From the UHGV virus genome UHGV-1451962: a DNA stretch of 64,000 nt; one strand, 5' to 3'. Each line of letters begins with the position of its first letter. The first letter of the stretch is position 1. This DNA comes from a virus. Both the position numbers and the translations under genes were made by a program. This document shows, piece by piece, positions 3,928-63,867 of this stretch. Under the pieces are notes generated by a model. That model did no database searches. It was not told the origin of the DNA and saw only the letters and a program-made list of their open reading frames with translations.

Positions 3928-6900
3928 TATCTCCCTGAAGTCTTGTATGTCTTAAAATTAAATCTCCATGTTCATCAATATTATCAATATGATATAATCG
4001 ATGAGAAATACTAGAAGCATATTTTTTACTAACAAATTCGTCCCCCCGACGAATACCCTGAATTAAAATCATATTACCTCTATTAAACCAACTCTTTTCA
4101 ATCACTTTCTTAGTTCCATCTGATTGACGTTCAGAAATTTGTTTATCAAAAACAGCGAAATGTTCCTTTCTTAACTTTACTGGTACTACTCCAGTAGTAG
4201 TTAAAAGATAAACAATTCCTTTTGGTTTATTTTTTGCAATACAAGTTCCGCAAATTTTATGCAGTTTATAAATAGGAATTTGAATAGCACCTTTTTTGAA
4301 AAACTTTTCTACTTCTGGTTCAGCAGGTAATTGCTCAAAATCAACAATACCATATTTGTTCTTATTAACATTAATCAATTCATGCGGATGATAATAAAAA
4401 CATAAAGCTTCCATTTCCCAAGAAGATAAATTACCAGAAGCATATTTTTCCCAATCTTTCATAAAAATACTTGTATTTAACTTATTTAAAATATTTTGTT
4501 TATCTTGATTAATCCAATTTCTAAAAACATCCATCCAAGTTTGATAAATGTTTTTATCCCAAATTTTCTTATTTAAGAAATAATTATTTTCAATCCAATG
4601 TCCATAATCCATTTCATAAATAAAATTTAAAGCTCTTTCATCAAGTTTATAATATTCATTGTCATATTTACATTCATTTTTTAAATATCTGTTAAATTCA
4701 TAAATTTTTCTTGCGGTTATTTGTTCTTCTGTTTCTTCTGGCAAAATTTTATGTCTAATTAATCCTGGAAGATTCTGTAAAGTTAATCTTGATTTTTTAT
4801 CACAAGTAAGCCACAAATAAGTAATCATTGTGTCATATCTAGGAGACAAATTATCAAAAGCACCGCCTTTAATCAAAGTAATCATTGCTTGTTTATTAGG
4901 TCTAACTCGATTGTAAAAATCTATCATAGAATTATAAGGACGTTTAGCAATAATATCTTTAATTAAATCATCTCCGACATTAAGCAAACTTTTTAAACCC
5001 ATCCAAATTAAATTCTGTTTTTCATCAGGAACAAAATTATATTGTGAATTATTAATATCTACAAGAGAAATTTTAATATTTGCTTTTTGCATTTTTCCTA
5101 AAGCAGTAGCAATTTTGTTATAATCAGTGCTTCCATCTTCTCCACCTGCATCATTAATAAGACAAGCGCAATTCCAATAAACAATAGGAAATTTAAAAGC
5201 TAAATTCATTTCTTGAACAGCAATGATAGAATAGGCAAGCGTATGAGATAGATTAAATCCATATCCTCGACTAGTTGCAATTAACACATTCCAAACATAA
5301 TTACAAAGATTTTGACTTAAACTTTTTTCTTTTACTTCTGTAAAATACTTTTTAGTAAGTTCATCATATGCAGCAGGATTTTTCTTTGCAATAGCTTTTC
5401 GCAAACTATCAGCAAAAGTCAAATCAAAACCACCGCACTCTGGAATTTGAACTAATTGCATAAATCCTTCCTGACTCTCACATATACCATAACTACCAGA
5501 AAGATATGGTTTAAGTAATTCTTGCTCTTGTTGAGTTAATCCATAGTTTTCCATTTCTTGATACCACAAATTAATATTTGCTTTAAAGCGAGCATATTTA
5601 TTTAAAGGTTGTTCTCCACCTTTTTCCTGAGCCATTAATCGAATAATTGAATTTAAGTGGGCTAAATCTTCAACTGATTTAGGGTGAGTTAATGCAATGC
5701 CTTGTATTCCACTTTGTTTTTCCATTTGGAATAAAGATTGAATTTCATGGTTATTAACCATTTTCCACATTTCAGAATCATTGCGTTCAATATTATATAC
5801 ACCTAAAATTTCTTCATAAGTTTCTCTTAAAGAACCTTTATCTTGAATTTTATTTGCTGCAAGTAAAAGATCGAGACAATTATGCATTTTATCCATAGCT
5901 TCAACGGATAATAGATCATACTTGATAAGACTTACATCTTCAGCCCGATGTAGATCATAACCTGTTACTATTGTTCCATCAGGAGCACGCATTAAAGAAG
6001 CGGACTCAGTAAAAGGTTCATCCACAAAAATAACTCCGCCTGCATGAATACCAGAACGACAAATCAAACCTTCAATTTTATGAGCTACATCCCACAATTC
6101 AGGATATTCTTTCATTTTATCAACAAAAGGTCTAATGATAGGATAACCATTTTCTTTATCACCATAATAACATTGAGATAAAGTGCGAATTAATCCTCTA
6201 TCTGCGGGAATAAGAGACGCAATATATTGAGCTTCATCTACATCAATACCTAAACCTCTACAAGCTGTTAAAATAGCACTTTTAGAAGTTTCTTTACCAA
6301 AAGTGATAACATTTGCAACTCTATCTTCACCATAAACTTCTCTTAGGTGAGAAAGAACTTGCGCTCTTTTAGATCCTTCAATATCTACATCTACATCCAA
6401 AACAGAAACTCGACTAGGGTTAAGAAATCTCCAACTAAAAGTTTGAACAGTTTCTCGCAAAGGATTAATTTGCGTTATATCTAAAAGATATAACAAAATA
6501 AAACCAACACCTGAACCACGACCTGGGCCAACTAAACTGCCAGCCTCCCAACAGCAATCAATAATTTTTTGAAGATTTAAATAATAAGCACTCCAATGAG
6601 TTTTATTTACTATTGATGATTCCCAAGTTTTATCCAAACAATCATTAATTGCTTCATAAGTCTTTTGATTTCTTAAAGTTTCATCTTTTTCTAATCGTTC
6701 AATAATAGCTTTAGCCAATTCTACATCACCAATATAATCAGATTCAATAAATTCCTTCAAAAGAGGAATATCATTTACCCAATCATATAAATTACTTTTT
6801 GGATTAAAAATTTTCCAAGGCAATTGTGGAATTTTTAGAGATTTCCGCAAATCATAATCTTCACATTGCGAAGCAATATAATTAATATTTTTATATGCTT

Positions 6901-7747
6901 CATCAAGAGAAAAATCAAAATGAGATTCAAGTTCTTCAGTAGTCATCATATAAGTTGTAGCATAAAAAGCATCAACTTCTCTCTCACCATCTTGAGAATT
7001 AAGATATGCTTTATGAATTGGTCGATCTTCTAATCGAGCATAATGTGAATCTGTAGTTACAATCCAAGGAATATTTAATTCTTTTGCAATTTTTAATAGC
7101 TGTTGATTAGCTAAGTATTGTTCATTATCTTTTTTCTCAGGTGGCTGCAATTCAATATAAAAATTACCTTCTCCAAATAATTTTACCATTGATTTACACC
7201 ATTTAATAAGATGATTTTTTCTTTCTTCATCTGGATTTTCAACTAACTTTAAACATTCTGAGGACAAAAAACCACCCAAACAAGCGCTTGATGCAATAAG
7301 ATGACCTTTATTATTATCAATAATATCAATTAAATCTTGATAATAAGTGGGGACTCTTCGCATTTTACCTGTTTTATAACTTCTTAACCATGCGCGAGTA
7401 GAAATTTCTCTAAGTTGTTTATGACCTTCTTTATCTTTTGCTAATAAGATAAAATGATAATAACTATCTTCTCCTGAAATAAAATTATCTTGATTTAATC
7501 CATTTCGACAAAGATAAATCTCATTACCTAAAATTAGTTTAAAATCAGGATTATCTTTTTTAATCTTTTCATAATAAGATAAGGCAGATAAATGTCCTGA
7601 TAAACAATCATGGTCAGTAATAGCTAATACTTTATGCCCCAAAGAAACAGCTGTATCAATTAAATTTTCTACTTTTATGATACAATCGCGTAGACGAATA
7701 TTACTGAACTCCGAGTGATTATGTACACTACCTGGAAATTTCAACAA
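3908..7747 (-). CDS. dnaE: DNA polymerase III alpha subunit-like replicative polymerase (PHP domain)
   Basis: 1279 aa; N-terminal PHP motifs HNHSEFS and LAITDHD; size and architecture of DnaE. Confidence 0.85.
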   Translation of the reverse strand: MLKFPGSVHNHSEFSNIRLRDCIIKVENLIDTAVSLGHKVLAITDHDCLSGHLSALSYYEKIKKDNPDFKLILGNEIYLCRNGLNQDNFISGEDSYYHFILLAKDKEGHKQLREISTRAWLRSYKTGKMRRVPTYYQDLIDIIDNNKGHLIASSACLGGFLSSECLKLVENPDEERKNHLIKWCKSMVKLFGEGNFYIELQPPEKKDNEQYLANQQLLKIAKELNIPWIVTTDSHYARLEDRPIHKAYLNSQDGEREVDAFYATTYMMTTEELESHFDFSLDEAYKNINYIASQCEDYDLRKSLKIPQLPWKIFNPKSNLYDWVNDIPLLKEFIESDYIGDVELAKAIIERLEKDETLRNQKTYEAINDCLDKTWESSIVNKTHWSAYYLNLQKIIDCCWEAGSLVGPGRGSGVGFILLYLLDITQINPLRETVQTFSWRFLNPSRVSVLDVDVDIEGSKRAQVLSHLREVYGEDRVANVITFGKETSKSAILTACRGLGIDVDEAQYIASLIPADRGLIRTLSQCYYGDKENGYPIIRPFVDKMKEYPELWDVAHKIEGLICRSGIHAGGVIFVDEPFTESASLMRAPDGTIVTGYDLHRAEDVSLIKYDLLSVEAMDKMHNCLDLLLAANKIQDKGSLRETYEEILGVYNIERNDSEMWKMVNNHEIQSLFQMEKQSGIQGIALTHPKSVEDLAHLNSIIRLMAQEKGGEQPLNKYARFKANINLWYQEMENYGLTQQEQELLKPYLSGSYGICESQEGFMQLVQIPECGGFDLTFADSLRKAIAKKNPAAYDELTKKYFTEVKEKSLSQNLCNYVWNVLIATSRGYGFNLSHTLAYSIIAVQEMNLAFKFPIVYWNCACLINDAGGEDGSTDYNKIATALGKMQKANIKISLVDINNSQYNFVPDEKQNLIWMGLKSLLNVGDDLIKDIIAKRPYNSMIDFYNRVRPNKQAMITLIKGGAFDNLSPRYDTMITYLWLTCDKKSRLTLQNLPGLIRHKILPEETEEQITARKIYEFNRYLKNECKYDNEYYKLDERALNFIYEMDYGHWIENNYFLNKKIWDKNIYQTWMDVFRNWINQDKQNILNKLNTSIFMKDWEKYASGNLSSWEMEALCFYYHPHELINVNKNKYGIVDFEQLPAEPEVEKFFKKGAIQIPIYKLHKICGTCIAKNKPKGIVYLLTTTGVVPVKLRKEHFAVFDKQISERQSDGTKKVIEKSWFNRGNMILIQGIRRGDEFVSKKYASSISHRLYHIDNIDEHGDLILRHTRLQGDIEDEED

Positions 7748-7769
7748 ATTATCACACCTTTCTTATTAT

Positions 7770-7798
7770 ATTATATCATATTTTTTTAATTTTTTAAA
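7770..7798 (-). promoter_or_regulatory. Sigma-70-type promoter (TTTAAA-N17-TGnTATAAT)
   Basis: Reverse complement reads TTTAAA, 17-nt spacer, TGATATAAT, upstream of dnaE RBS. Confidence 0.35.
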
Positions 7799-8991
7799 AC
7801 AAGAGTAAGTTTTTCAGATGCACGAGTCACTAAAGTATATAAATATCTTTTATGTTCTTCTTGTTTAAAAGGAAAGTTTTCTTCAATACCTAATACCTTT
7901 TGATATTCGCTGCCTTGTGCTTTCCAACAAGTAATTGCATAACCATAGTCAAAACTTTGAAGTTTGTAATTTTTAGGTAAAAGATAATAATTATCTTGAG
8001 TAACACTTGGCGTATGATTTACTAATTGATTATAATCTACATTATTCATAGAAAATAATCCTAAAAGATTTTCATCATCGTATTCTTCTGGCATAAAATC
8101 TAATTTAAGAATATTATCTTTTAAATTTTTATCATATAAAACCTTATAATTTTTGATAGTTCCAATTGCACCATTAATAAGTGGGTCTTCCAAAGAATTT
8201 AATTTTTTCCAATCATTATGCAGACAAATAATTTTATCTCCAACAACAGGAAGAGCACCTGAATCAACGCCCCAGAATAATTTGCGGCAAACATCATTTA
8301 AGTAATATCTAGTATCATTTTTAGCACAGATAATCTGATCTGCCCAAGCTAGCATACCTTGATTTAAATCAGAAGCACAAACTACATTTACCTCTTTTCC
8401 TTTAAAAGGTTTAATAAGTTTGCCATTTCTAATATCCATGCTTAACCTAATAATTTCACTTTCTTGCGCTTGTCGCATAATTTCATCAAGAAAAACATGT
8501 GGATTATTTAGAATATCTGTTCCTTCTGTTAAAGCAGGTAACTGACCAGGGTCACCAGTTGCTAGAACAGGAATGTGATGGGAGAGAAGAAGTTCCCACA
8601 TTTTTTTAGGTAACATGGAAATTTCATCTACCACAATAAGTTTATAATCATCAATAGTCAATTTAGGATAAAATCTATATGTTCCATTAGGATTTTTTAC
8701 AGCTTTATAAAGTAACTTATGAGCAGTCATTGCATTTTTATTACCTTTTGATTTTAAAACTTTAGCGGCTTTACCTGTATAAGCAATAAAAGCTACATCA
8801 TTTTCTTTATCTAAATTTAAAGCATCAATAATAAAACCTACTAATGTGCTTTTGCCAGCTCCAGCGTATCCCGAAATTACAGTATATGGTTCTTTAGATC
8901 TATATCTTTGTACTGCAATCTGCAATCCTTGGTATTGTTTATCAGTTAGAGTCATTTTTATCCTCCAAAAGGTTTTCTCTAAGAATATCAA
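7786..8991 (-). CDS. RecD/PIF1-like ATP-dependent DNA helicase
   Basis: Walker A GYAGAGKST, Walker B VVDEISML, C-terminal CWKAQGSEY motif; true start may be internal Met (MTLTDKQ). Confidence 0.7.
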   Translation of the reverse strand: MIFLEKTFWRIKMTLTDKQYQGLQIAVQRYRSKEPYTVISGYAGAGKSTLVGFIIDALNLDKENDVAFIAYTGKAAKVLKSKGNKNAMTAHKLLYKAVKNPNGTYRFYPKLTIDDYKLIVVDEISMLPKKMWELLLSHHIPVLATGDPGQLPALTEGTDILNNPHVFLDEIMRQAQESEIIRLSMDIRNGKLIKPFKGKEVNVVCASDLNQGMLAWADQIICAKNDTRYYLNDVCRKLFWGVDSGALPVVGDKIICLHNDWKKLNSLEDPLINGAIGTIKNYKVLYDKNLKDNILKLDFMPEEYDDENLLGLFSMNNVDYNQLVNHTPSVTQDNYYLLPKNYKLQSFDYGYAITCWKAQGSEYQKVLGIEENFPFKQEEHKRYLYTLVTRASEKLTLVLKN

Positions 8992-31777: not shown

Positions 31778-33055
31778 TTAAACCTCCTGTGCTTCTTCCA
31801 TATCGGGCTGGGTTTCAGTATCTTTAACTAGACCTTCAAGAACTTTAAATTCCCAGGTTTTTTGTTTTAATGCAGTAAAAGTACGTCTATTAGCGATTCT
31901 AACCACTACACCTTCTTTAACATGAGTTAAACCAATTGGGTCAACAATATCTTCAAAATATTTGTCAATTTTAGCGAGCAAGTCATCAATAGTAGTAAAC
32001 TCAAAATCCTCAATGATAGGAACACGATTAAAACCATATTCATTGCACCAAGTAGTAATTTCCTCTGGAGAATATTCATATTCACCATTATGAGAAGTAA
32101 TTCTATAAATCCACATTGCAGAATGACCAGGAGTACAACCATAAGAAAAAGTAGTATATTTACCAAACTTTTTCATAAATTTCTTGTCATTGATTTTACT
32201 ATTATCTACAATTGGCATAATAGTTTCATTTTCTTTTGCTCCATACCAACCAACTACTTCATAAAAAACCTCCATACCTTCATTAAGATAAGGTTTCAAA
32301 GCTTCATGGTGACTAAATCTAAATTTGTCATTACCATAATAACCTGCTCCATCAGTGGTAACAACAGTTCTACGAGTACCTAAAACATACTGCAACTTTC
32401 TCTTAGGTTTCATGTGAAATAGCTTTCTAAACCAAGACATAGGATATTCTGCCCAAGTATATGCACTACGTTGGCTAGTACCATGCATTTTAAGGGTTAG
32501 ATTAATTTTATCTCCAGGTCTAAAGATTCCAAGATTATAAGCTAATTGGGCAGTATTAATATGCATGGCAAAATCAGGATACTTAATTCCAGCTGCTTTA
32601 CGACCTTTATAAGAAGTTTTAGGAGTAGTGCGAGGAGTAGCCGAAGGTTTAGGAATATATTTATAACAAAATAGCTTATTATTAATTTCAGTGACTTGAT
32701 CGCCATCTTTCCAATTTTGCTCACCAAAATGCTCAACAATAGTAGAATAAGAAATAACAATACCAGAAGATTCATTACCTCTTAGCTTAATTGCTCTAAT
32801 ATGAGCATTATTTTCCAAATAACCACCTTGTGCGGTACCATCTAAATTCTTGCGGAAAAGCTTAAACTCATCACCAAACCAACGCTCAATAGCTCCATCA
32901 GTAGGAAGATAAAGAACTAATTCATCTTCCTTCATATCAGGGCCTACAATAACTCCTTCTCTAAAACAATCTGCTAAATAGAGTCTATCAGAATTAGGGT
33001 CTTTTCTTACATTTTCAATTTTAGTTACTAAACCATAGTACGCCATAAATGTCAA
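31778..33055 (-). CDS. ATP-dependent RNA ligase (Rnl2-like nucleotidyltransferase) with N-terminal extra domain
   Basis: Motif I LKMHGTS (KxHGT as T4 Rnl2 KIHGTN), motif III EVFYEVVG, motif IV EGVVVRI, motif V KQKTWEFK. Confidence 0.65.
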   Translation of the reverse strand: MTFMAYYGLVTKIENVRKDPNSDRLYLADCFREGVIVGPDMKEDELVLYLPTDGAIERWFGDEFKLFRKNLDGTAQGGYLENNAHIRAIKLRGNESSGIVISYSTIVEHFGEQNWKDGDQVTEINNKLFCYKYIPKPSATPRTTPKTSYKGRKAAGIKYPDFAMHINTAQLAYNLGIFRPGDKINLTLKMHGTSQRSAYTWAEYPMSWFRKLFHMKPKRKLQYVLGTRRTVVTTDGAGYYGNDKFRFSHHEALKPYLNEGMEVFYEVVGWYGAKENETIMPIVDNSKINDKKFMKKFGKYTTFSYGCTPGHSAMWIYRITSHNGEYEYSPEEITTWCNEYGFNRVPIIEDFEFTTIDDLLAKIDKYFEDIVDPIGLTHVKEGVVVRIANRRTFTALKQKTWEFKVLEGLVKDTETQPDMEEAQEV

Positions 33056-35912: not shown

Positions 35913-36809
35913 TTAAAAAGTAGTAGGTTGAAAATATGAGCATAAATAACTTTCAATGATATTTAATAATACTTCATCCATGTAATTAGAAATTTCTACA
36001 TTAATAGAATAATTTTTTCTTTCATTACTTAATCGCTCATACTGATTCTTTACCCATTCTTGCTGATCTTCAACAAAAATTTTTACAAAACTTAAATCTT
36101 CATATCCATTTTTATAAAAGATTAATCTTTCTCTCCAAAAACTATCATAACACTTTAAACAAATAGAATAAGAATCATTCAAGTAACAACTATAAAATAA
36201 TCTAAGTCTATTTAAATGGCTAAAGCACTTTGGGTCATAACCAAATTTTTCTACAACTTCTTTTCGACTCTCTGTTGGTTTAAACATGCGATTAATCTCA
36301 TTTTGCATCATGCCAAGCATACTATTTAAAGCTCTAAACTCATCATAATGAGCAATTTCATCTCTTTTATAAATTAATTTATTCCAAAAAGATTGATATT
36401 TTGGATTTACATAATAGTAATCAGTGTATAAAATTTCTAAAAAATTAATATTCTGTTTGCGGAATTCATTCATATAAAGCCGCACATCTTTAAAATCAAT
36501 GTGTTCATTATTATCTAAAACATGAGTATAACTCACTGGTTTTTTATTAAAAGCCAAATCTTCAATAGTAGGAATAATAAGACATTTAGTATCAACATCC
36601 GAATTTGCTGTATCAAGACCATAATTAGCGGCACCTTGATAAAAAATACCAAGAATATTTTCTTCAGAAAAAATTTTTAAAGCTTCTTGGTAATGCTCCA
36701 TTACTCTTGTTTGAATTTCAATATAAGAATGATAATTGGTAGATTTTTCCTCTTGCTTTTGAATATAAATAGTTTTAATAATATTATATAAATTTTGATA
36801 ATTATTCAT
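35913..36809 (-). CDS. Pol-beta-superfamily nucleotidyltransferase
   Basis: GAANYGLDTANSDVDTKCLI fits GS-x9-13-DxD nucleotidyltransferase signature. Confidence 0.55.
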   Translation of the reverse strand: MNNYQNLYNIIKTIYIQKQEEKSTNYHSYIEIQTRVMEHYQEALKIFSEENILGIFYQGAANYGLDTANSDVDTKCLIIPTIEDLAFNKKPVSYTHVLDNNEHIDFKDVRLYMNEFRKQNINFLEILYTDYYYVNPKYQSFWNKLIYKRDEIAHYDEFRALNSMLGMMQNEINRMFKPTESRKEVVEKFGYDPKCFSHLNRLRLFYSCYLNDSYSICLKCYDSFWRERLIFYKNGYEDLSFVKIFVEDQQEWVKNQYERLSNERKNYSINVEISNYMDEVLLNIIESYLCSYFQPTTF

Positions 36810-36810
36810 A

Positions 36811-37155
36811 TTAAATCTCCTCCCAATGATTATGCTGAATAATTCTTCTCATATTTTGAACTCCCACAGGATTTTGGGAATGAAGATGAAATTTACAAGA
36901 AAGAGGCCAAGCAAAAGCATTTTGAACTCTCTCTAACCAATTTAAAATTTCAATATAATCGCCACCATCAGAAGCAAAATCTCCAGCATCATAGTCGAGA
37001 GATATTAAATCAAGAAAAATATCATCAGTTAATCCAATTAAAAAACCATTTTGAGCAAAAGAAATCATAGTTTTCGCTTGTTCGACAGATTTAGCCCAAA
37101 TATAACCAGTAGGCGCAGGTCGAATATCATCCACCCATAATTTCATAAACATCAA
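36811..37155 (-). CDS. hypothetical protein
   Basis: 114-aa ORF. Confidence 0.4.
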   Translation of the reverse strand: MMFMKLWVDDIRPAPTGYIWAKSVEQAKTMISFAQNGFLIGLTDDIFLDLISLDYDAGDFASDGGDYIEILNWLERVQNAFAWPLSCKFHLHSQNPVGVQNMRRIIQHNHWEEI

Positions 37156-37207
37156 TTCCTTTCTTAATTTCTATATATTATATAATAATTTTTTAAAAAA
37201 ATAAAAA

Positions 37208-37226
37208 GGGAGTCAAAATGACTCCC
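37208..37226 (-). terminator. Rho-independent terminator hairpin
   Basis: GGGAGTCA/TGACTCCC inverted repeat. Confidence 0.45.
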
Positions 37227-37232
37227 TTAAAA

Positions 37233-38294
37233 TTATTTTATAATATTTTTAAAACGCTCTAACATAACTGCCATTTGCTCTCTAGTTAAATAAGCTTTGG
37301 GTAAAAGATAGCCTTTATCATCACCTTGAAGAATACCTGTACTAACAGCCCATTCAACACTTGCTTTAGCCCAATTAGAAATATCATTTTTATCTTTAAA
37401 TTTATCTAATGTATTCATATTTGTCCTCCCAATATTATAATATTTATCAATATCAATAGAATTTGGTTCAGGTAAAATTACCGCACCAAATCCTGTTTTT
37501 GGATCAATTCCCTTATCGCCTATATCTTTACAATTATCTTTGAAGAATTGAATCATTCCTTCTCTTGTTAGAGGTAATCCTTTTTTATCAATAAAGAAAT
37601 CATCTACCAGACAGCTCATTCCACATAACCAAGGTGTAGAAAAAGAAGTGCCAGAATTGGAATAAGTTGCTGCGTCTGGTTTTGTAGCTTGCGGATTTAA
37701 ATAAATCATACTAGGCGCAGAAAAGTCTACATAATTACTAATACTAGAATAATAAGCAGGATTTACTGTACCATCTACCATTAAAGTATAAGCAGCTACG
37801 CCGATTACTTCTTCAATTTCCATAATTGGATTATATTTTTTAGAAGAATCATTTCCTGCGCTCCAAAAGGGTTTAAAATTAGGATGTTTAATATACCAAT
37901 TTTTTAAATCTTCAAAAAATTTGGTATGTCTACTACAATTTAAAGAGGTAAACATATTGGTAATATTATATTTTTCAATAATTTCTACTGATTCATTAAA
38001 AAATTTAGAGTTATAATTATCTCCACCGCCATAACTGCCATCAATGGAATAAAGCATAAATAAATGAGCTTTTGGAGCTACTTGGAAAAATGTTGCCGCG
38101 GTATTTATTGGATGTTCATTTGACATTTGTTTATCTTTTAAACAATTTCTTACTAAATTATCTGGATTATATCTATTAATATCCCAGGTTTCTCCACTTG
38201 CAGCATTTACTCTTTCTCCAAAATAGCCCGCATTATGGAAACGAGTTACACCTGTAAAGTTTCTATGTCTATTATCATCATTTAATAATATCAT
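37233..38294 (-). CDS. Putative serine peptidase-like cell-wall protein with C-terminal SLH domain
   Basis: SGTSFSTPW resembles subtilase GTSxAxP Ser motif; C-terminal WAVSTGILQGDDKGYLLPKAYLTREQMAVML matches SLH pattern. Confidence 0.45.
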   Translation of the reverse strand: MILLNDDNRHRNFTGVTRFHNAGYFGERVNAASGETWDINRYNPDNLVRNCLKDKQMSNEHPINTAATFFQVAPKAHLFMLYSIDGSYGGGDNYNSKFFNESVEIIEKYNITNMFTSLNCSRHTKFFEDLKNWYIKHPNFKPFWSAGNDSSKKYNPIMEIEEVIGVAAYTLMVDGTVNPAYYSSISNYVDFSAPSMIYLNPQATKPDAATYSNSGTSFSTPWLCGMSCLVDDFFIDKKGLPLTREGMIQFFKDNCKDIGDKGIDPKTGFGAVILPEPNSIDIDKYYNIGRTNMNTLDKFKDKNDISNWAKASVEWAVSTGILQGDDKGYLLPKAYLTREQMAVMLERFKNIIK

Positions 38295-38350
38295 TTTAAT
38301 CCTCCTTATAAAAAAAGAGAGGTAAAATTACCTCTCTCTTAAAATACTAT

Positions 38351-46667: not shown

Positions 46668-47900
46668 TTATTCTCCTTCCTTACTTATTATATAATATCC
46701 ATCCTTATATTTTTGAACATATCCGTCCAATAAATATTTTTCAGGAACTTGATGATTAAATTTACCACCTTTAATAATTATTTGCGCGGTTTCATCATCT
46801 ATTTTAAAATTGGATTCTCCGTTAGAATCAAAAGTACCGCCATTAATATAGGTTGTAGCTTTATTTATATTATCATTTAGTTTTCTAACTCTTAGATTAT
46901 AACTTCCATCGTCAATAGAAAAAATACCATCATTGATAGTTAATTCAAAACCATTATGTAAAATAGTTCCGAAAAAGTTACCATTATTTAATATAGCCTT
47001 AGAATTATCATCATTTTTAATAATATAAATTTTACTAATAAAAGTACCGCCATCAATAGTAAGAGAAGGATATTGTTTATTAGTTCCTTCGACATATTGG
47101 GCATTATAATCAGTATAACCATTTTCTATCATACTAGATAAATTGCCAGGAGAGCTAAAAACGCCATCTGTAATATTTAAATCACCATGATTTACTACTA
47201 CATAAAAACCATTGTTTTTTTCATCAATAGATTTAAGATAAGAACCATTCTCAATAATAGTAGTTCCATCATTAGATAACACAGGAGTAGCATGTTTGTT
47301 GCACTCTACTGTTCCTTCACCTTTTAAAGTTACTATTCCATTACTATTTATTGTTATTGGTGTTTTATCATTATTTAAAATATAAGCAGAATTTAAATCT
47401 AAAGAAATTTGTTTATTAATTTCAATAGTAGATAAATTTTTTGTAATAGTAATAGTATCAGTAGGAGAGGCAGCTGCGATTGCTTCTTCTATTGTTGCAT
47501 AATTTTTACCATCAATAGTACAAGAACTTTGCTCCTCAGAAGAATCTTTTATAACTTCTTGAGATGCACTTGCAGGAACCCATTCGCCTTTTGTCTGTAT
47601 ATATAAAACACCTTTAACAATACAAAAAGTATTTTCTTTTACGCTTGCGGGATCCGGTAAAGTTTCTTGCACGCCAGTAAATTTAGCCGCTTCTTCTGGA
47701 AGAACTATATTCTCAGTAATATATTTTAAATCATTATAACGAGTTACACCATCACCAATTTTTAGTTTTCCTGATTCTCCTACTTTTTCAGGATATTCAT
47801 AACAAGGTTCGCCATATCTTAATAATAAATTTTTATTAGATAAAGCAGTTTTAGAACCACGTCTAATTTGGAAAATAGTATTTAAAATAACTTCAGCCAT
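46668..47900 (-). CDS. Tail fibre / receptor-binding protein
   Basis: N-terminus IFQIRRGSKTALSNKNLLLRYGEPCYEYPEKVGESGKLKIGDGVTRYNDLKY matches phage tail-fibre N-terminal domain pattern; Asn/Gly/Thr-rich repetitive body. Confidence 0.55.
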   Translation of the reverse strand: MAEVILNTIFQIRRGSKTALSNKNLLLRYGEPCYEYPEKVGESGKLKIGDGVTRYNDLKYITENIVLPEEAAKFTGVQETLPDPASVKENTFCIVKGVLYIQTKGEWVPASASQEVIKDSSEEQSSCTIDGKNYATIEEAIAAASPTDTITITKNLSTIEINKQISLDLNSAYILNNDKTPITINSNGIVTLKGEGTVECNKHATPVLSNDGTTIIENGSYLKSIDEKNNGFYVVVNHGDLNITDGVFSSPGNLSSMIENGYTDYNAQYVEGTNKQYPSLTIDGGTFISKIYIIKNDDNSKAILNNGNFFGTILHNGFELTINDGIFSIDDGSYNLRVRKLNDNINKATTYINGGTFDSNGESNFKIDDETAQIIIKGGKFNHQVPEKYLLDGYVQKYKDGYYIISKEGE

Positions 47901-48541: not shown

Positions 48542-48559
48542 ATATCAAGATGCTATTAA

Positions 48560-48680
48560 TAAACCTTATAGAAATATATTTACTATATAGTATTTTAATA
48601 AACTTTATAGAAATATATTTACTATAATATACTATTTTTATAAACCCTATAAAAATATATTTGTAATAATTATTGCTGGA
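48560..48680. repeat. Three ~38-bp imperfect direct repeats (iteron-like)
   Basis: aaccttatagaaatatatttactata... repeated three times. Confidence 0.5.
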
Positions 48681-49056: not shown

Positions 49057-49175
49057 ATATAAATTAGAAATAATTATCTATCACTAATAGTAATTACTTC
49101 ATCAGAAAAAATCATATCATCCAAATCCATAAGGCAGCTCTCCTTTCTATATTTAATTTTTGCTAGACTCTTTTA

Positions 49176-49250
49176 AACCAGAAATGGGAATCGAACCCAT
49201 ATTTTTACCTTTTCAAGGGTAATGTCTTAACCTTTTGACTATTTCAGAAT
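49176..49250 (-). tRNA. Atypical tRNA-like element (possible pseudo-tRNA or expanded-anticodon-loop tRNA)
   Basis: Canonical T-arm ATGGGTTCGATTCCCAT but apparent 8-nt anticodon loop CTTGAAAA on TTACC/GGTAA stem, poorly paired acceptor, no CCA. Confidence 0.35.
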
Positions 49251-50843: not shown

Positions 50844-51152
50844 TTAATCAACAATGCCCAGAGTTTCCTTTAATCTTTTGATTGTCTCAGCATCTTCATC
50901 ACTAATTTCCGCAGTCTTAACTTCCTTCTCAGTCCAATCATTTGGATTACCAGTGGTAATATTTCGATTAGTAGAACCACCAGTAACAGGTGTCTTTGGC
51001 ATTGTCAAACTAATAGCGAATTGAATAGTTTCGCCACCTTCATGACCATTCACATAAATCTTCTTATTGTCAATACAGCAGAAATCATCACCAAAAACAT
51101 CAACAATCTTCTGCATTACCTGTTCTCTTGCTTTGTCACCACGTCTAGCCAT
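50844..51152 (-). CDS. hypothetical protein
   Basis: 102-aa ORF after promoter 51185. Confidence 0.45.
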   Translation of the reverse strand: MARRGDKAREQVMQKIVDVFGDDFCCIDNKKIYVNGHEGGETIQFAISLTMPKTPVTGGSTNRNITTGNPNDWTEKEVKTAEISDEDAETIKRLKETLGIVD

Positions 51153-51184: not shown

Positions 51185-51213
51185 ATTATATCATTTATTT
51201 TTTAAATTTTCAA
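51185..51213 (-). promoter_or_regulatory. Sigma-70-type promoter (TTGAAA-N17-TGnTATAAT)
   Basis: Reverse complement TTGAAA, 17 nt, TGATATAAT. Confidence 0.55.
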
Positions 51214-51214
51214 A

Positions 51215-51520
51215 TTAATTTTCTTTTAAATCAATAATCTCAAAATAAGACTTATCAACAACAAATTCATTAACTAAAAAATTTACTACCTTTTCAGCTT
51301 CTTCTTTAGAAGAAAAATGTTTTGCACAACTAAAAATAGTTATTATATCGTGAAAATTTTTACCAATATAATTATCTAAAAATTTAATAACATAATCTTT
51401 TTCATATTCTTTAAAAAGAAACTCTGGAGATTTTTCTAATATGACAAAAGTATTATAATAAGGATCATAAAGAAGATAATCATTAATCAAAAGACGATAC
51501 TCTACTCCATTAATATTCAA
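51215..51520 (-). CDS. hypothetical protein (TTG start per ORF track)
   Basis: 101-aa ORF; frame stays open upstream to TAA at 51581-51583 without an ATG. Confidence 0.4.
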   Translation of the reverse strand: MNINGVEYRLLINDYLLYDPYYNTFVILEKSPEFLFKEYEKDYVIKFLDNYIGKNFHDIITIFSCAKHFSSKEEAEKVVNFLVNEFVVDKSYFEIIDLKEN

Positions 51521-51701: not shown

Positions 51702-51730
51702 ATTATAATATATTTTTATTAAAAATTCAA
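51702..51730 (-). promoter_or_regulatory. Sigma-70-type promoter (TTGAAT-N17-TATAAT)
   Basis: Reverse complement TTGAAT, 17 nt, TATAAT. Confidence 0.45.
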
Positions 51731-53023
51731 TTGACGTTCAAATGATTTAATTTCTCGCCAACAAGAATTACAATAAATACCCTCTTCTTCTTGTCTATAA
51801 CTTTGTTTATCTTCTAAATTTATTCTTTTTCCACAACAAGAGCAAATTGGATATAAATTTCCTTCAGCATTATATTTTTCTGCACAAGTATCACAAATAA
51901 AGCTCGCCGAATTATTTACTTTTCTGCCACATCCACAAGTGCAAGCAACAGGATAACCAATTTTAGTTAAAAATAAATCTATTGTCTTTTGCTTATCTTT
52001 GCTATAATAATATTTATATTTTTTGTTAATACTAACTTGTGTTTGATGAAATGAAGAATATACAATATCATTATAATTCAACGAATTTTCTGGAATATCA
52101 ATTAATTCTAAAGTATCAAAAACTTTATTATTTAATGCCATATAATTATGGTCTAAATCAATACAATTATCTTGATTTAAATTAATTTGGTCAAAAGTAA
52201 CTTCTTTAGGAGGCATAAAATCTCTATCATAAAATAATTTATTATAAACTAAATCTAATAAATTTTTATTATAAGAAGGGTATTGTCTTCCATAATAAAT
52301 TATATTATCATTTTGATTTATATGAATTAACATTCTCCATTTTTTATTATAAACTTTAATAAATTTTGGTAAACAATCTACATTGATTTTTTCTTCATTT
52401 GCTAAAAATACAATAATAGTAGATGGATCATTCATATAACTAATATTTCCTGCACGATAATCACCGTCTAATGAATGACAAGAACGCCAATTGCAATTAT
52501 TCTCACTAGAAGTTAAAAATTCAAATGGATCAATAGAAGCAAATAAATACCCAGAAATTTTTTGTGTTTGAATTAACTCACTTGCCATATCCTGGATTTT
52601 TCTAAGCTTTTGTTTATCTTTAACAAAATACTTAAAAGATTTAATAATTTTACTTCCACGTTTTACAATATTTAAAAAATCTGAAGTAACAATATTAGAA
52701 TAAAAATTATTTACATTATCACTAAGAAAATCATAAAAATTATAATATAGTTCTACTTCACTATCTGGAGCATCTTCAGATGGTTCCAGCAAATTCATAA
52801 CTTTATCAATAAATTCAAAAAAACTATCTCTTCTAAAGGTTTCATCAAGAGTAATAGATACTGGTTCATCAGTTAATTGTAAAGTAATTTTTTCGTTCAA
52901 ATATTCTTTATTCAATTTAGCTTTATTAATTTCCCAAGAAGTAATTATTTCTTCACAGTCAAGAGGAAAAGAATAATTTTGAGAATATTTAATTGCCGCT
53001 TCCAGTGATTTCTGTAAATTCAA
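51719..53023 (-). CDS. Large zinc-ribbon protein, paralogue of ORF 55129..56784, function unknown
   Basis: 434 aa; shared core KISGYL..SIDPF...NCNWRSCHSLDGDYRAG...KKWRMLIHI; C-terminal CTCGCG...CDTC...CSCCG...CNSC. Confidence 0.6.
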   Translation of the reverse strand: MNLQKSLEAAIKYSQNYSFPLDCEEIITSWEINKAKLNKEYLNEKITLQLTDEPVSITLDETFRRDSFFEFIDKVMNLLEPSEDAPDSEVELYYNFYDFLSDNVNNFYSNIVTSDFLNIVKRGSKIIKSFKYFVKDKQKLRKIQDMASELIQTQKISGYLFASIDPFEFLTSSENNCNWRSCHSLDGDYRAGNISYMNDPSTIIVFLANEEKINVDCLPKFIKVYNKKWRMLIHINQNDNIIYYGRQYPSYNKNLLDLVYNKLFYDRDFMPPKEVTFDQINLNQDNCIDLDHNYMALNNKVFDTLELIDIPENSLNYNDIVYSSFHQTQVSINKKYKYYYSKDKQKTIDLFLTKIGYPVACTCGCGRKVNNSASFICDTCAEKYNAEGNLYPICSCCGKRINLEDKQSYRQEEEGIYCNSCWREIKSFERQLNF

Positions 53024-53714
53024 AGTTTTTTGTCCTCTTTTCTTCTAAAATTAAACAAACCTTATCAATAGTATCAAATAAAGCTGGGTAATAAAGCATT
53101 TCCGCATAACTATGTTCATTAAAATAACCAACAGAAAGATTAACTGCGGGAATATCCCAAATTGGGCCTAGAATACAAATATCTGTAAATACACCTACCG
53201 CAGTTTCAAATCCATAATTATTGATATAATTTTCAAAATCAATGTTATTTAATGAATAATATACTGCATCTTTTGTTCCTTGGCGGTCTAGCTCAATAAG
53301 CATTTCAAAATTGGTGAAAGGTTTTGGAAAATCTTTAGTCAGTTGATAAGCACCTAAACCGCCATTTTCCTCATCGCAACAAAAAATTACAGTAGGCTTA
53401 TAACCACATTCTAAAATATTTAAAATAGCAAAAACGCCCGCTCTATCATCTGCACCTAAACCATTTGTTCCCCAAATAATATTATATTCTGGATCATGAA
53501 AAATCTGTTTAGGTGGTTCTGGATATACAGTGTCTAAATGAGCAACTAAAGCTACTGGGATATCACCTTTAGCGCAAATATAATTGTTGGTAATAATAAT
53601 ATCTTCTTTGCGGTAGATAGCATTAAGCGCTTTAGGCAAAAATTCTAATAGTTCATGCTGTGTAGATTGTAACAACTTTTTTAAAAACTTATAATCATAA
53701 TTATTTAGTTTCAT
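52989..53714 (-). CDS. Putative Zn-dependent peptidase-like protein (M42/M28-type motifs)
   Basis: VALVAHLDTV and GLGADDRAGV resemble metal-ligand motifs of M42/M20 aminopeptidases; only 241 aa. Confidence 0.4.
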   Translation of the reverse strand: MKLNNYDYKFLKKLLQSTQHELLEFLPKALNAIYRKEDIIITNNYICAKGDIPVALVAHLDTVYPEPPKQIFHDPEYNIIWGTNGLGADDRAGVFAILNILECGYKPTVIFCCDEENGGLGAYQLTKDFPKPFTNFEMLIELDRQGTKDAVYYSLNNIDFENYINNYGFETAVGVFTDICILGPIWDIPAVNLSVGYFNEHSYAEMLYYPALFDTIDKVCLILEEKRTKNFEFTEITGSGN

Positions 53715-53737
53715 ATCATCCCCATCTTTCTTATTTG

Positions 53738-53772
53738 TTTTATAAAACTCACCAAAGGTGAGTTTTATAAAA
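53738..53772 (-). terminator. Rho-independent terminator hairpin
   Basis: TTTTATAAAACTCACC/GGTGAGTTTTATAAAA; same core as 23948. Confidence 0.5.
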
Positions 53773-53823
53773 CTTATTATTTCTTTTATTATATAAATAT
53801 TATATTATATTTTTTAAAGAAAA

Positions 53824-54600
53824 TCAATTTTTTTCTGTCAAACTAATATATTCATTCATTTTATTAGAAATTAAAATTGCGTTTCTACATAAATGACAAG
53901 AAATATCTGGTTCTTGACATCTCTGTCCGCAATTCAATCTGTTTGAACAAAAACTATTTGCAATATAAATATTATTAGTTGGTAAATTTAGTTGTCTAAT
54001 TAAATTATTTAAATCAAAAGGAAAAATCTTTCTTTTATAAATATTGAATAAAGTTTCTTCTGCATCTTTGCTGTTATCTCTAAAGTCTAAAATATCTATA
54101 TATTTAGAATAATTATCTATATCTTCTGGTCGAATATAAAAAGAATTTTCATTATCTGAAGATGCCCATTGCGCGTTTGGCGACATATGCGGAGTGACCC
54201 TAATCTTTATTTTTCCTTTTGCTTTTCCAATTTTTTCCATTTGGAATCCTAAAGCTCCGTCAATATAAATATCTGAAACTCCAATATTTTTTAAATTATT
54301 AAAAGTTTCCCAATCTGAAACCGGCAAATCTAAATATACATTATAGCCTTTTGCTTTTAATTTCCGCAAATCTTGGAAATTAATTACAGCTATTGTATAA
54401 TCTTTTGCCACTTCTTTAATGAAATCAATTTGTTCATCCAATTTTTTTTCAGATAATTCACCCATATTAGTGTATTGAATATTACATCTAATATCTGGAT
54501 TTTCTTTAATTAAATCAAAAATGTCTCCCAATCTATTTACTTGACATTTGATTTCATCTGGCATTAATTTTTTTAGTCTTGTATTTAAACTATATAACAT
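53824..54600 (-). CDS. hypothetical protein with C-terminal Cys cluster
   Basis: 258 aa; CSNRLNCGQRCQEPDISCHLC; first gene after conserved upstream element copy C. Confidence 0.45.
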   Translation of the reverse strand: MLYSLNTRLKKLMPDEIKCQVNRLGDIFDLIKENPDIRCNIQYTNMGELSEKKLDEQIDFIKEVAKDYTIAVINFQDLRKLKAKGYNVYLDLPVSDWETFNNLKNIGVSDIYIDGALGFQMEKIGKAKGKIKIRVTPHMSPNAQWASSDNENSFYIRPEDIDNYSKYIDILDFRDNSKDAEETLFNIYKRKIFPFDLNNLIRQLNLPTNNIYIANSFCSNRLNCGQRCQEPDISCHLCRNAILISNKMNEYISLTEKN

Positions 54601-54624
54601 TGTTATTCTCCTTTATCTTTTAAA

Positions 54625-54687
54625 AATTTGTTAAAGCCATTTTTATTCGCACGTCTCCGCCCCGGCATAAGCCAAGCTAAAAGTTTC
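54625..54687 (-). promoter_or_regulatory. Conserved ~60-nt upstream element, copy C
   Basis: Minus strand GAAACTTTTAGCTTGGCTTATGCCGGGGCGGAGACGTGCGAATAAAAATGGCTTTAACAAATTT; aligns with copies A and B. Confidence 0.4.
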
Positions 54688-54735
54688 AAACTTTATTTTT
54701 AGCAAAAAATATGTTATTATAATTATGGTAATAAA

Positions 54736-54761
54736 AAAGAGGAGAAAAAATTCTCCTCTTT
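54736..54761. terminator. Bidirectional rho-independent terminator hairpin
   Basis: AGAGGAGAAAAAATTCTCCTCT. Confidence 0.5.
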
Positions 54762-54767
54762 ATCTTC

Positions 54768-55145
54768 TTAAATTTTTCTATATCCAGTCTTTTTCTGACC
54801 TTCAAAAGAAATTTCTTGTTTCTCAATTTTGTTTAATTTAAATAATTGAGTTAAACGTGCAGAAATTTTTTGAGAAGTAATTAAATCATTATTTAAAATT
54901 TCTTTTATTTTAGAAACAGGGATGGGGTTTTCTTCACAGCTGGGCAAAATGTCATAAATCTGTTCACGCAGTTCGTCACCTTTTTCTTTTGCTTCAATAG
55001 CTTTTAACTTTGCAGACTCTGTTTTTCTATCAAGCAACATAATTTCATTTTCAAGAAAATTTCTAATCATTTCTGATTCTGGGCAATTATCTCCAAAATG
55101 CTGGAGAATTTTTTTATAATAATCTTTTTTAGTCATTTTCTTCAT
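54768..55145 (-). CDS. hypothetical protein
   Basis: 125-aa ORF overlapping upstream gene stop. Confidence 0.45.
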   Translation of the reverse strand: MKKMTKKDYYKKILQHFGDNCPESEMIRNFLENEIMLLDRKTESAKLKAIEAKEKGDELREQIYDILPSCEENPIPVSKIKEILNNDLITSQKISARLTQLFKLNKIEKQEISFEGQKKTGYRKI

Positions 55146-56784
55146 TTAAATACTCCTTGTTAATAAAGTATTCTGGATTATACAAAATTGTTTCATTAAC
55201 AGTTAAATCATGGTAAAAACAATAAGTAGAAATCATTTTATGTCCTTCTTTGTTATTATAACGAGTAACTTGGCTAATATATTCTGAAGTTATAAAATCA
55301 ACAGTAGCTACAAAGTATTTTTCATCTTCATATTCTACTTCAATAATATTTCCACATTCAAGATTTTCATTAATACATTCAGGACATAAATAGTTAAGCA
55401 CTCTTAATTCTACTCGTTCACAATTTTTGTCTTTGTAAGCAATACAAATTGCGGTGTTTTCATCTTCATCATTCCAATGAAATTCCTCACACTCACCACA
55501 AAAGAAACCATGATCTAACATACATTCTTCACAATACCAGTTTCCATTGTGTTCAACGCCATAATCTTCTGGATTAATTAAATCGCCACAATCCGCACAA
55601 AATATCAAACCTGCACAGCTAGGACAAAGAAACATACTAGATAAAGTATCTGAATCTGTCCAATCTTCGGAAATAATTTCACCGCATCTTAAACATCTTG
55701 CATATCCACTATAATTAAATTCAATTTCTTCATCTGCTTCAATAGCATCTTCTGAGTAGTATAAAAAACATTCTCCATTTGCATTAATATCATTATACAT
55801 TAGAATAGTTTCAAATGTAATTTTTTTATCATAGCGGAAATTAGTTCTATCAAACTTATTGTGATAATATTCCTCAACTAAATCTGCTAACCAATTAGCG
55901 CACATAGTCTCCAAATAAACACTAGGATATGGATAACTTTTGATACCACAAATAAAATCTTTATCAACAATAAATAATTCCCGCCATTTCTTATTATTCC
56001 AGGAATAATCATCATTGATATTCCAAGGTTTTTTGCTTTCAAGATAACAAACTACAACAGAAGAGGAATTAAGCATTTCCAAAGTACCTACTTTATAGTC
56101 TCCTCCGCCATCACCCCAGCGCATACAAGATTCCCAATTATTACCATTATCGCTCATGGTAATATAATCCATAGGATGAATTGAGATACATAAATTGCCG
56201 GAAATCTTTTTTTGATTAAATACTTGAGAATGTTGAATCCGCAAATATTCAATAAAATCATTTATTTCATCATATTCAATTTGTTCAATAAGTTTATTTT
56301 TCAATGCAAAATTAACAAAAGATTTAAGAGCTTTAAAAACTTTTGTACCTTGCGGAATTTTAAAATTGTTGTATTCAAAGGTGGTTGTAGTTTTATTTTC
56401 CGCTAAAACACGAAAATTTAAGCAAGAACTCACCCAAAGATTAGAATTAAGATAAATTTCTTGATTTACATCAGGAAATAAATTATCAATAATTTCAAAT
56501 AATCTATTTTTAAGTTTGTAATAAATATTAGAATTTTTATTATTCTTGAGAAAAAGCTTATTGATTCTTGAAATAAGAATTTCAGTATCTACATCAAAAC
56601 TAATTTCTTTCTTGTAAATAAGCTGATTCTTGAAAAGAGGAAGCAAGTATTCACTTTTGGCTTCATGCCAAAATTTGAGATAGTCTCTTGCTGGCATAGC
56701 TTCATCATCGCCATAAGTTTGAAAATAAAAATCTAACAAATCTTCATCTTTAGTAAGATTTAATTTGTTCATAAAATCTTCCAT
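55129..56784 (-). CDS. Large zinc-ribbon protein, paralogue of ORF 51719..53023, function unknown
   Basis: 551 aa; shared core KISGNL..SIHPMDY...NNWESCMRWGDGGGDYKVG...KKWRELFIV; C-terminus with at least six CxxC pairs. Confidence 0.6.
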   Translation of the reverse strand: MEDFMNKLNLTKDEDLLDFYFQTYGDDEAMPARDYLKFWHEAKSEYLLPLFKNQLIYKKEISFDVDTEILISRINKLFLKNNKNSNIYYKLKNRLFEIIDNLFPDVNQEIYLNSNLWVSSCLNFRVLAENKTTTTFEYNNFKIPQGTKVFKALKSFVNFALKNKLIEQIEYDEINDFIEYLRIQHSQVFNQKKISGNLCISIHPMDYITMSDNGNNWESCMRWGDGGGDYKVGTLEMLNSSSVVVCYLESKKPWNINDDYSWNNKKWRELFIVDKDFICGIKSYPYPSVYLETMCANWLADLVEEYYHNKFDRTNFRYDKKITFETILMYNDINANGECFLYYSEDAIEADEEIEFNYSGYARCLRCGEIISEDWTDSDTLSSMFLCPSCAGLIFCADCGDLINPEDYGVEHNGNWYCEECMLDHGFFCGECEEFHWNDEDENTAICIAYKDKNCERVELRVLNYLCPECINENLECGNIIEVEYEDEKYFVATVDFITSEYISQVTRYNNKEGHKMISTYCFYHDLTVNETILYNPEYFINKEYLNEEND

Positions 56785-56879
56785 ACTTTTAAAACTCCTT
56801 TTTTATTTTCTATAAATATTATATCATAAAATTTTTAAAAGGTCAACAGTGTTACAAAATCTGTTGACCTTTGTTTTAT

Positions 56880-58956: not shown

Positions 58957-59415
58957 TTAACAAAAAGTAATAGTTTTATTAGCTTCAAGTTTGCGGGTAA
59001 TGATTGCAGCGAGTTGCTTAGAGGTTTTAGAATGAAAATCATCTTTGCCTTTAAATTCATCCCAGGTAAGAAGTACATATTTGAGGTTTTTGGGCATTTC
59101 TGTAGGAAGTTCTTCTTCAGAAACAAAATGCCAACCAATACCTACTGCGTATCTTGCGTTGGATTCTTTACACCAGAGTTCATCCGCATGAGTTTTAATG
59201 TTGCGAACCACAAGAATGGGGCCTTTACTGAAACCGCGCACTCTTTTAAGATTGGGATTTCCGCTATTAGTTTTCTTTACTTTTGTTTCTTCATACCATC
59301 TTGCTTTGCGGATAGTACCAGTTTTAGGATTCTGAAGTTGAATATACATCTTGCCATTTTCTTCATAAGGTTCAGACAGTTTGGTAAAATTTTCATAAGA
59401 TTTAGCAACACTCAT
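58957..59415 (-). CDS. hypothetical protein
   Basis: 152-aa ORF with GGAGGTTGATTATTA RBS. Confidence 0.45.
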   Translation of the reverse strand: MSVAKSYENFTKLSEPYEENGKMYIQLQNPKTGTIRKARWYEETKVKKTNSGNPNLKRVRGFSKGPILVVRNIKTHADELWCKESNARYAVGIGWHFVSEEELPTEMPKNLKYVLLTWDEFKGKDDFHSKTSKQLAAIITRKLEANKTITFC

Positions 59416-63416: not shown

Positions 63417-63867
63417 AAAAATTAATTATTTAGAATGGGGATTTCAATAAGTGGCATTTTTCATAAAGGTTGAATGCGGTAGAACTTACCTCTTGATTAT
63501 AAGTAGTAATGTTTTCATAAAGAGCAGAAGAACCAACGGTAGAAATGATTCCATTTTCTAAACAATAGGAAGAGTTAGTGGATATAATCGTTTAGATAAG
63601 TAAGTTCTACTCTTTTACCCAGATTTGGAAATGTTTATTTTCACGATTGGTGAAAATATGATTATTGTCTTCGAAGACTTTGAGAATTTGGGTTCTACTT
63701 GGCGAATTACGATATAGTGTCGGGAAAAAATTACTTGAAAACTAGAGGAAAGATTATGGAAGTGTTGGGGAAAATTACTTTTTTATTCATTTAAAATCAC
63801 CTTAGAAGTTATTTTTTCAATGGAAATAAAGAAGATTAAGGGGAAGGAGTTTACGAATTAAAGAGAT

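Follow-up and report, generated by a model that had tools for sequence, protein, structure and literature searches.

A pair of paralogous proteins brackets a peptidase gene

The 64,000-nucleotide (nt) stretch of UHGV virus genome UHGV-1451962 analysed here, referred to as the window, encodes two large cysteine-rich proteins, A and B, and between their genes lie those for a predicted metallopeptidase (P) and a TIM-barrel protein with a cysteine cluster (T). All genes of this block are on the minus strand. An initial annotation, made from the DNA letters alone, had described A and B as an unrecognised paralogous pair in a phage accessory region and had put them forward as candidate host-takeover or anti-defence factors. 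Both open reading frames (ORFs) are present as it described, A at 55129..56784 (551 amino acids, aa) and B at 51719..53023 (434 aa). A comprises a helical N-terminal region (residues 1–190), an alpha/beta core (193–360), three acidic Cys4 sites (364–470) and a disordered tail (510–551). The same helical region and core make up B, which carries two Cys4 zinc sites and whose ORF overlaps the end of P by 35 nt. The start codon of B is TTG, and its N-terminus (MNLQKSLEAAIKYSQNY) aligns with orthologues from residue 1.

The similarity between A and B is significant in a formal alignment. BLASTP returned two overlapping high-scoring segment pairs (E 2e-13 and 3e-13) at 23–24% identity, which jointly cover residues 8–421 of A and extend from the N-terminal region across the core into the first zinc sites. 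All of the shared motifs listed previously (KISG.L, SI.P, N.W.SC, GDY[KR].G and KKWR.L) were found. The zinc ribbons are likewise borne out: six CxxC knuckles in A form sites at C364/367/387/390, C396/399/418/421 and C429/432/467/470, and four knuckles in B give its two Cys4 sites. Both genes said to lie between the pair are there as well, namely a 241-aa gene that passes the Pfam Peptidase_M28 threshold (P) and one whose 258-aa product ends in a C-x3-C-x6-C-x2-C cluster (T).

The gene block is conserved across large gut phages

Searching with A yielded at least 238 relatives, none annotated by Pfam and nearly all metagenomic, on contigs of up to 201 kb; an exhaustive search by profile put the family at 2,424 clusters (50% identity) with a cut-off of E ≤ 1e-30 and at 3,809 with E ≤ 1e-10. 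On the contigs of three relatives, the gene order is that of the window. Their large downstream protein is orthologous to B, not A (42% and 30% identity to B), and their 255–263-aa and 328–330-aa genes are orthologues of T and P.

We then scanned 79 loci from IMG/VR and 31 from species-representative genomes with hidden Markov models (HMMs). The species-representative matches were all contigs of metagenome-assembled genomes, many of 150–176 kb, from human or ruminant gut and mostly binned as Lachnospiraceae, Clostridia or other Bacillota. Collapsing loci whose A proteins were ≥80% identical left a non-redundant set of 55 loci whose sequence continues for ≥6 kb downstream of A. A small basic protein, S, is encoded in 51 of these (~93%), directly after A; T is found in 53 and B in 45; P and a further small protein, fam6 (102 aa; 50844..51152 in the window), each occur in 52. 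The exact order S-T-P-B-fam6 was seen in 38/55. When the first 85 loci were clustered all against all, only the block families and one more, fam5, proved common to most, the remaining content of the 17-kb neighbourhood being variable. Copy number per locus ranges from 1 to 4.

A-type and B-type HMMs split every homologue cleanly (e.g. A500/B60 versus A120/B390 bits), which makes the duplication an old one with both copies kept. A and B are separate, anciently diverged orthologous subfamilies. In some loci S-T-P-B is preceded by two, three or four A-type copies, in tandem or close to one another (L121, at 3552–8587, and L024, L027, L038, L054, L059, L064 and L081), a pattern that shows lineage-specific expansion of the A subfamily. 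A divergent stand-alone family member occurs in a Psychroflexus-binned sediment contig, and a search from the most divergent member (L116) uncovered no domain fusions and no named relatives. Between the same loci, orthologues of A and of B are ~30–35% identical and those of T and P ~45–50%. The reading frames of A and S overlap by 17 nt and those of P and B by 35 nt, which suggests translational coupling. Taken together, these comparisons show that A-S-T-P-B-fam6 is a fixed, core-like gene set, kept together in almost all related phages examined, rather than a loose accessory duplication. The description of A and B as unrecognised paralogues therefore stands, and the accessory-region, anti-defence framing is not supported for a pair that is near-universal, fixed in position and at the head of the replication arm.

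The block heads the replication arm of a distant SPbeta relative

The window has ~29% GC, and nearly all of its genes are on the minus strand. Besides 17 tRNA genes, it encodes NrdD, a 1,279-aa DNA polymerase, a RecJ-like exonuclease, a DnaB-like helicase, both topoisomerase II subunits, an RNA ligase and a radical-SAM protein. The A/B block is co-oriented with the replication genes and lies upstream of them. The polymerase has its closest match in YorL from SPbeta-like Bacillus phages (38.8% identity, 99% of the length), and neither megablast with the region nor tblastn with A gave a match among 50,697 phage records. The window is therefore part of a large uncultivated phage, distantly akin to the SPbeta group. 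The replication arm of SPbeta itself (60–110 kb) has no block genes.

Relatives of the block occur in cultured Enterococcus phages

Cultured relatives were reached solely through the peptidase and the HMMs built here. With P as a tblastn query, we found 44%-identical genes in seven Enterococcus phages of ~134–142 kb (H1, EF1, EF5 and VRE9_1-4). One of these, EF1, has been grouped with ~130–140 kb human-gut phage genomes, next to Spbetavirus (PMC10607447). In phage H1, three A/B-family members surround the peptidase: the A-type H1_1 (623 aa, E 5e-22); the B-type H1_5 (399 aa, E 6e-25), which has an acidic tail and no zinc sites; and H1_7 (335 aa, E 1e-13). All three are members of phrog_29713 and phrog_18912, both labelled 'unknown function', and BLAST with them found relatives only in these seven phages. 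The window proteins themselves do not reach the proteins of these two families by BLAST or by direct hmmscan (E ≤ 0.01).

The two families nevertheless share with A and B the motifs S-I/V-x-P-x-D, W-x-S-C, G-x-Y, K-x-W-R, Y-P and Y-N-D. Moreover, the arrangement around the phrog_34186 peptidase and the position at the head of the replication arm are the same as in the window: the H1 block begins a strand that runs into ribonucleotide reductase, helicases, a YorL-like polymerase and dUTPase, with the structural genes on the opposite strand. The Enterococcus phages differ from the window in having three paralogues, one of them with an acidic tail in place of zinc sites, and in lacking T.

The A/B core has no counterpart among solved structures

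The AlphaFold model of A is confident (mean predicted local distance difference test score, pLDDT, of 86; predicted template modelling score of 0.75), with pLDDT above 90 in most 10-residue blocks up to residue 330. Its core resembles nothing that we searched. Window proteins, 47 full-length members and 19 core-only sequences gave no Pfam, NCBIfam or PADLOC model for the core, and PHROGs matched only the zinc-ribbon part, at sub-threshold scores. Attempts to place A, B, S and T directly in a family of Pfam, NCBIfam, PHROGs or PADLOC brought up nothing beyond zinc-ribbon matches below threshold. Against the sequences of the PDB, A alone found nothing, a core-only profile had zero matches even at E ≤ 10, and a full-family profile retrieved LIM and zinc-finger chains only. 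A fold search with the modelled structure of A likewise returned no counterpart for the core among solved structures. The earlier statement that the shared core belongs to no recognised family is therefore upheld across Pfam, NCBIfam, PADLOC, PDB sequences and solved folds, and these remote-homology and fold searches brought up no common housekeeping fold.

An alignment of 181 family members, including the three H1 paralogues, revealed a set of essentially invariant residues (A numbering): K43, N130, K148, S186, S201, P204, D206, W217, C220, G228, G233, K265, R268, Y284, P285, N331 and D332. Thirteen of them are polar or aromatic, the others being P204, G228, G233 and P285. Many fall in a conserved loop, T-M-S-D-N-x3-W-x-S-C, and in the strands that follow it. 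A polar set kept in all paralogues at very low identity is the pattern that an active site, or a very specific ligand site, would be expected to leave. Several known catalytic arrangements were compared with these motifs and discarded for misfitting spacing and lack of a structural match, namely those of TGT/DpdA, of PD-(D/E)xK proteins, of Pol-beta nucleotidyltransferases, of papain-like enzymes, of CX5R phosphatases and of PP-loop proteins.

The zinc modules of A and B are LIM-like in having two contiguous Cys4 sites with eight ligands and LIM-like spacing. The family profile matched the LIM domain of CRP2 (1ibi) at E 3e-6, which we read as resemblance only, and Foldseek gave weak matches to LMO2, Isl1 and PINCH. 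They depart from LIM domains in their all-Cys ligands, their 5-residue linker (2 in LIM) and their marked acidity, and A adds a third site. Pfam LIM matched only 3/47 members (E ≥ 0.05), and the LIM and DZR (DZR_2) models stayed below threshold. A as a whole is acidic (isoelectric point, pI, 4.5; net charge –46, of which –26 is in the zinc region). This strong acidity makes nucleic-acid binding by the zinc modules unlikely.

P is a predicted dizinc hydrolase, and most orthologues share the zinc module

P (52989..53714; 241 aa) consists solely of the catalytic domain of an M28/M20-type dizinc hydrolase. It scores 23.1 bits against Pfam Peptidase_M28 (cut-off 21.3), and among PHROGs it matches phrog_34186 at 1e-55 and phrog_4191, annotated 'peptidase', at 3e-31. 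Peptidases of clan MH are marked by the motif set HxD, GxDD, EE, D and H, which supplies the co-catalytic dizinc ligands and the general base. The corresponding motifs of P are H59-L-D61, G-A-D89-D90, E115-E116, D143 and H201, all invariant in orthologues, and the HxD, GADD, EE and H segments align to the PepT-like M20 tripeptidases 3rza and 3gb0. Profile positions ≤128 and ≥174 align to PepT 76–175 and 320–388. P differs from PepT and other M20 enzymes in lacking the lid/dimerisation domain, the PepT insert of ~140 residues having no counterpart. We therefore predict that P, with every clan-MH motif invariant and no lid, functions as a single-domain dizinc hydrolase.

In most orthologues P continues into a C-terminal double zinc ribbon, which measures ~90 aa in the two that we aligned (L001:11126-12118 and L004:11253-12239). 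The lineage of the window has lost this ribbon, which is missing from its P and from that of its close relatives L005 and L006. When compared by hhalign, the zinc tail of P matched the module of A with a probability of 93.7% (E 2e-7) and that of B with 96.2% (E 2e-9). H1 has a separate 71-aa zinc-ribbon ORF, H1_2, that also matches the P tail (E 5e-5). These alignments show that A, B and most P orthologues carry one homologous acidic double-zinc module.

The peptidase by itself is far more widespread than the block. It was found in 220 phage records, including KP34/phiKMV-like podoviruses, Thermus P23-45, Lactococcus P087-like phages and large Bacillus phages. No A/B genes were found near it in Lactococcus P596, Bacillus Nate or Thermus P23-45. 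As a separate observation, a single-domain M28-like 'peptidase' recurs in non-structural regions of Klebsiella KP34-like phages, Pectobacterium Peat1, Vibrio VP93, Thermus P23-45 and Lactococcus P087 and P596, and its role in those groups seems equally unstudied.

T and the small proteins of the block

T (53824..54600; 258 aa) has an invariant C224-x3-C228-x6-C235-x2-C238 cluster and an acidic barrel face (E16, D96, E98, D110, D114, E159). It resembles generic TIM barrels equally well, be they GDPD, pyruvate kinase or de novo designs. Across 35 members, neither Peptidase_U32 nor GDPD gave a Pfam signal, and there is no invariant His; T fits neither GDPD, defined by a catalytic His pair/HRG motif and a Pfam match, nor U32, defined by a Pfam match and a Cys signature. 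Relative to GDPD, the U32 'peptidase' Mk0906 and the pyruvate kinase barrel, it has none of the family-specific catalytic residues, and the C-terminal four-Cys cluster is unique to T.

The basic protein S (54768..55145; 125 aa) overlaps the end of A; judged by eye, it may be a winged-helix protein. PADLOC has no model for A, B, P or T, and S drew only an insignificant match to DruC (E 0.02). The gene for fam5 (58957..59415; 152 aa, pI 9.5; family-5 HMM E 2e-47) lies upstream of A at a variable distance and is present in 72/85 loci. In most other loci, the gene for fam6 (family-6 HMM E 3e-33) adjoins the end of B or overlaps it. In the window B and fam6 are separated by an inserted, lineage-specific 101-aa ORF (51215..51520) that is outside the widely conserved families. 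No relatives of known function were detected for S, fam5 or fam6, and fam5 has no Pfam or PHROG match.

Promoters, terminators and the S-T spacer

The initial annotation had noted a conserved upstream element recurring in this region. This element is real and represents a repeated family of sigma-70-type promoters with an extended –10. The consensus, TTGAc-17-TGATATAATATWTATAGAAA, occurs 17 times in the window, always on the minus (coding) strand, compared to 0.25 expected occurrences. TGATATAATATWTATAGAAA combines the extended –10 with a conserved downstream block, the part beyond the –10 being ATWTATAGAAA. Sites include 7759, 16585, 30852, 34218, 41653, 49824, 56807 and 59660, and they are densest between 49 and 64 kb. 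The promoter of A (56818..56846, minus strand) reads TTGACC-17-TG-TATAAT, with 11/12 matches and an extended –10. Further minus-strand copies stand upstream of P and B (53799..53827), ahead of the 101-aa ORF (51702–51730) and ahead of fam6 (51185–51213).

Strong terminators had also been claimed, and this holds only in part. One good intrinsic terminator, with an 11-bp stem followed by TTTTATT, lies after S (54736..54761, minus strand). Upstream of A, a hairpin read from the sequence (56837..56869, minus strand; GGTCAACAG...CTGTTGACC followed by TTTT) overlaps the –35 of the A promoter and would end the upstream transcript. The third, a 17-bp hairpin in the 5' leader of P (53737..53773, minus strand), has its T-run on the plus strand only, which makes it a 5'-untranslated-region hairpin on the coding strand rather than a terminator.

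The spacer between S and T contains a GC-rich island (54645–54680, minus strand; GCTTGGCTTATGCCGGGGCGGAGACGTGCGAAT) in a genome of 28% GC. In the relative L005 this spacer is 97% identical, though the A proteins share only 80%. The island has no Rfam match and no stable fold (z 0.12); it is kept only in near-identical relatives and is missing from more distant loci.

A possible function for the block

Our preferred reading, which we hold tentatively and as possible rather than probable, is that A and B are catalytic and belong to an early or middle multi-enzyme module with P and T, docked through the shared zinc module and acting on a protein, peptide or amide-like substrate. Host-type promoters drive the block, which opens the replication and nucleotide-metabolism arm, and its expression timing would be early or middle. 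On this reading A and B would catalyse reactions, or at the very least bind a ligand with high specificity, rather than being plain zinc-finger DNA binders. Together with the predicted-active P and a metal-dependent T, they may work as one multi-enzyme module. The acidic double-zinc module of A, B and most P proteins would then be a common docking element, bringing them to the same partner or into one complex, and the substrate would most plausibly come from the proteins, peptides or other amide-linked molecules of the infected cell.

Several points weigh against this proposal. The site lined by the invariant residues could be one for binding rather than catalysis. A shared Cys pattern inflates hhalign scores between Cys-rich segments, and because P of the window has no zinc tail, docking through the module is not essential for P here. 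The same promoter motif runs along the whole window, so no 'early' class is established. B is missing from ~18% of the non-redundant loci and T from the Enterococcus phages, and hence the module is not obligatorily complete. Related genomes share ancestry, and this, not functional coupling, could account for part of the conserved gene order. Finally, activity, substrate and interaction are all predictions. None of A, B, S, T, fam5 and fam6 has a homologue whose function is known.

The suggestion that A and B are host-takeover or anti-defence effectors would have their acidic zinc modules bind and inhibit host proteins (such as defence nucleases, or components of the nucleoid or RNA polymerase) and their paralogues expand in an arms race. 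It can draw on the faster evolution of A and B relative to T and P, on the variable copy number per locus, on the pronounced acidity of both proteins and on a region rich in small genes of unknown function with host-type promoters. Typical anti-defence genes are patchily distributed, however, and the pair is near-universal and positionally fixed in its clade; strict invariance of the polar set in all paralogues speaks for a common chemistry rather than for diversifying binders, and neither PADLOC-related nor known anti-defence similarity was seen (PADLOC covers defence systems, not anti-defence). The fixed, core-like distribution weakens the effector hypothesis, and the rapid divergence and variable copy number keep it alive; we regard it as unlikely. 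Non-catalytic scaffolds, or virion or assembly proteins whose conserved residues are structural, would fit the LIM-like modules, which are classic protein-interaction elements, and the failure to recognise a catalytic motif of any known class. Yet most of the invariant residues are polar or charged (K, K, K, R, D, D, S, S, C, N, N), clustering in the conserved loop and neighbouring strands, and in H1 the block belongs to the replication arm, with the structural genes on the opposite strand; we consider such a role highly improbable.

Two other proposals name particular chemistries. The core could be a strongly diverged GNAT-like acyl- or aminoacyl-transferase and P a deacylase or aminopeptidase, the two adding and trimming amide-linked groups on proteins or metabolites, possibly using the large tRNA set of the phage. 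This is a more specific version of the model we prefer. Secondary structure assigned by DSSP to the AF2 (AlphaFold) model of A is compatible with the GNAT order b1-a1-a2-b2-b3-b4-a3-b5-a4-b6-b7, in element order only. GNAT folds gave no significant structural or sequence match to the core, and the Q/R-x-x-G-x-G/A loop that follows beta4 in GNATs is missing, the loop there being Y284-P285-Y/F-x-x with no Gly motif. A and B differ from acetyl-CoA- or aminoacyl-tRNA-dependent transferases of this fold in having no CoA-binding motif. We treat the comparison as a lead only, and a quite unlikely one. Still harder to credit is a pathway of tRNA or DNA modification, with T as a U32-like Fe-S TIM-barrel hydroxylase or phosphodiesterase and A and B as base modifiers with a Cys nucleophile. 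Such a pathway is at odds with the acidity of A, B and P, with the generic character of the T barrel, its missing U32 and GDPD signals and its lack of an invariant His, and with the Enterococcus phages, which have A, B and P and no T; nor would an aminopeptidase have an obvious role in it.

Returning to the multi-enzyme module, a broader formulation is that A and B found a new enzyme superfamily, of a fold unseen in solved structures and possibly far diverged from GNATs, which together with a zinc-ribbon-tagged M28 hydrolase and a four-Cys TIM barrel would constitute an unrecognised pathway for modifying or processing proteins, peptides or another amide-linked substrate in many large phages of gut Bacillota. 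This is conceivable, and we consider it doubtful. Whatever the activity, the family is large and fixed in one genomic position throughout a widespread clade of 100–200 kb phages, and apart from the peptidase no part of the block resembles anything described. A block that is stable across ~30% protein identity is likely to serve a central, undescribed step of the infection cycle. The distant but clear relatives in seven cultured Enterococcus phages make the question directly testable, and a confident model with no solved counterpart makes the core a good target for experimental structure determination.

Other features of the window

Just downstream of the block, in a tRNA cluster, ARAGORN predicts a tRNA (49175–49250, minus strand) whose anticodon has four bases (tgaa) and to which no amino acid is assigned; it could be a frameshift-suppressor-like tRNA or a miscall. 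Also amid tRNA genes is a repeat of 39–42 nt in three tandem copies (48546–48668).

The region 44000–46300 and the gene at 46668–47900 (minus strand) stand out by a local GC of 0.38 and by a 410-aa protein with a weak N-terminal match to Mtd_N, the tropism determinant of diversity-generating retroelements (DGRs). Neither a pair of template and variable repeats (TR/VR) nor a recognisable reverse transcriptase was found near this gene. A resemblance to Avd was dropped as a link to DGRs because it was a generic bundle match and no TR/VR repeat lies near the gene. In L001-L003, too, a clear Mtd_N gene is found downstream of the block.

An RNA-repair-like set (35913–39874 and 31778–33055, minus strand) comprises a DUF2828/DUF7788 protein (phrog_850, 'RNA-binding protein'), an RlaP-like nucleotidyltransferase and an RNA ligase. 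Adjoining it is an S8 subtilase with an SLH cell-wall-anchor domain (37233–38294), which is unusual in a phage. At the extreme end of the window (63864–63996), copies of an AT-rich unit of ~49 nt (AGATGTTTTATTAAAATATATTTTAAAATAGAG...) recur at offsets of 31 and 22 nt and may form iterons or an origin-like array.

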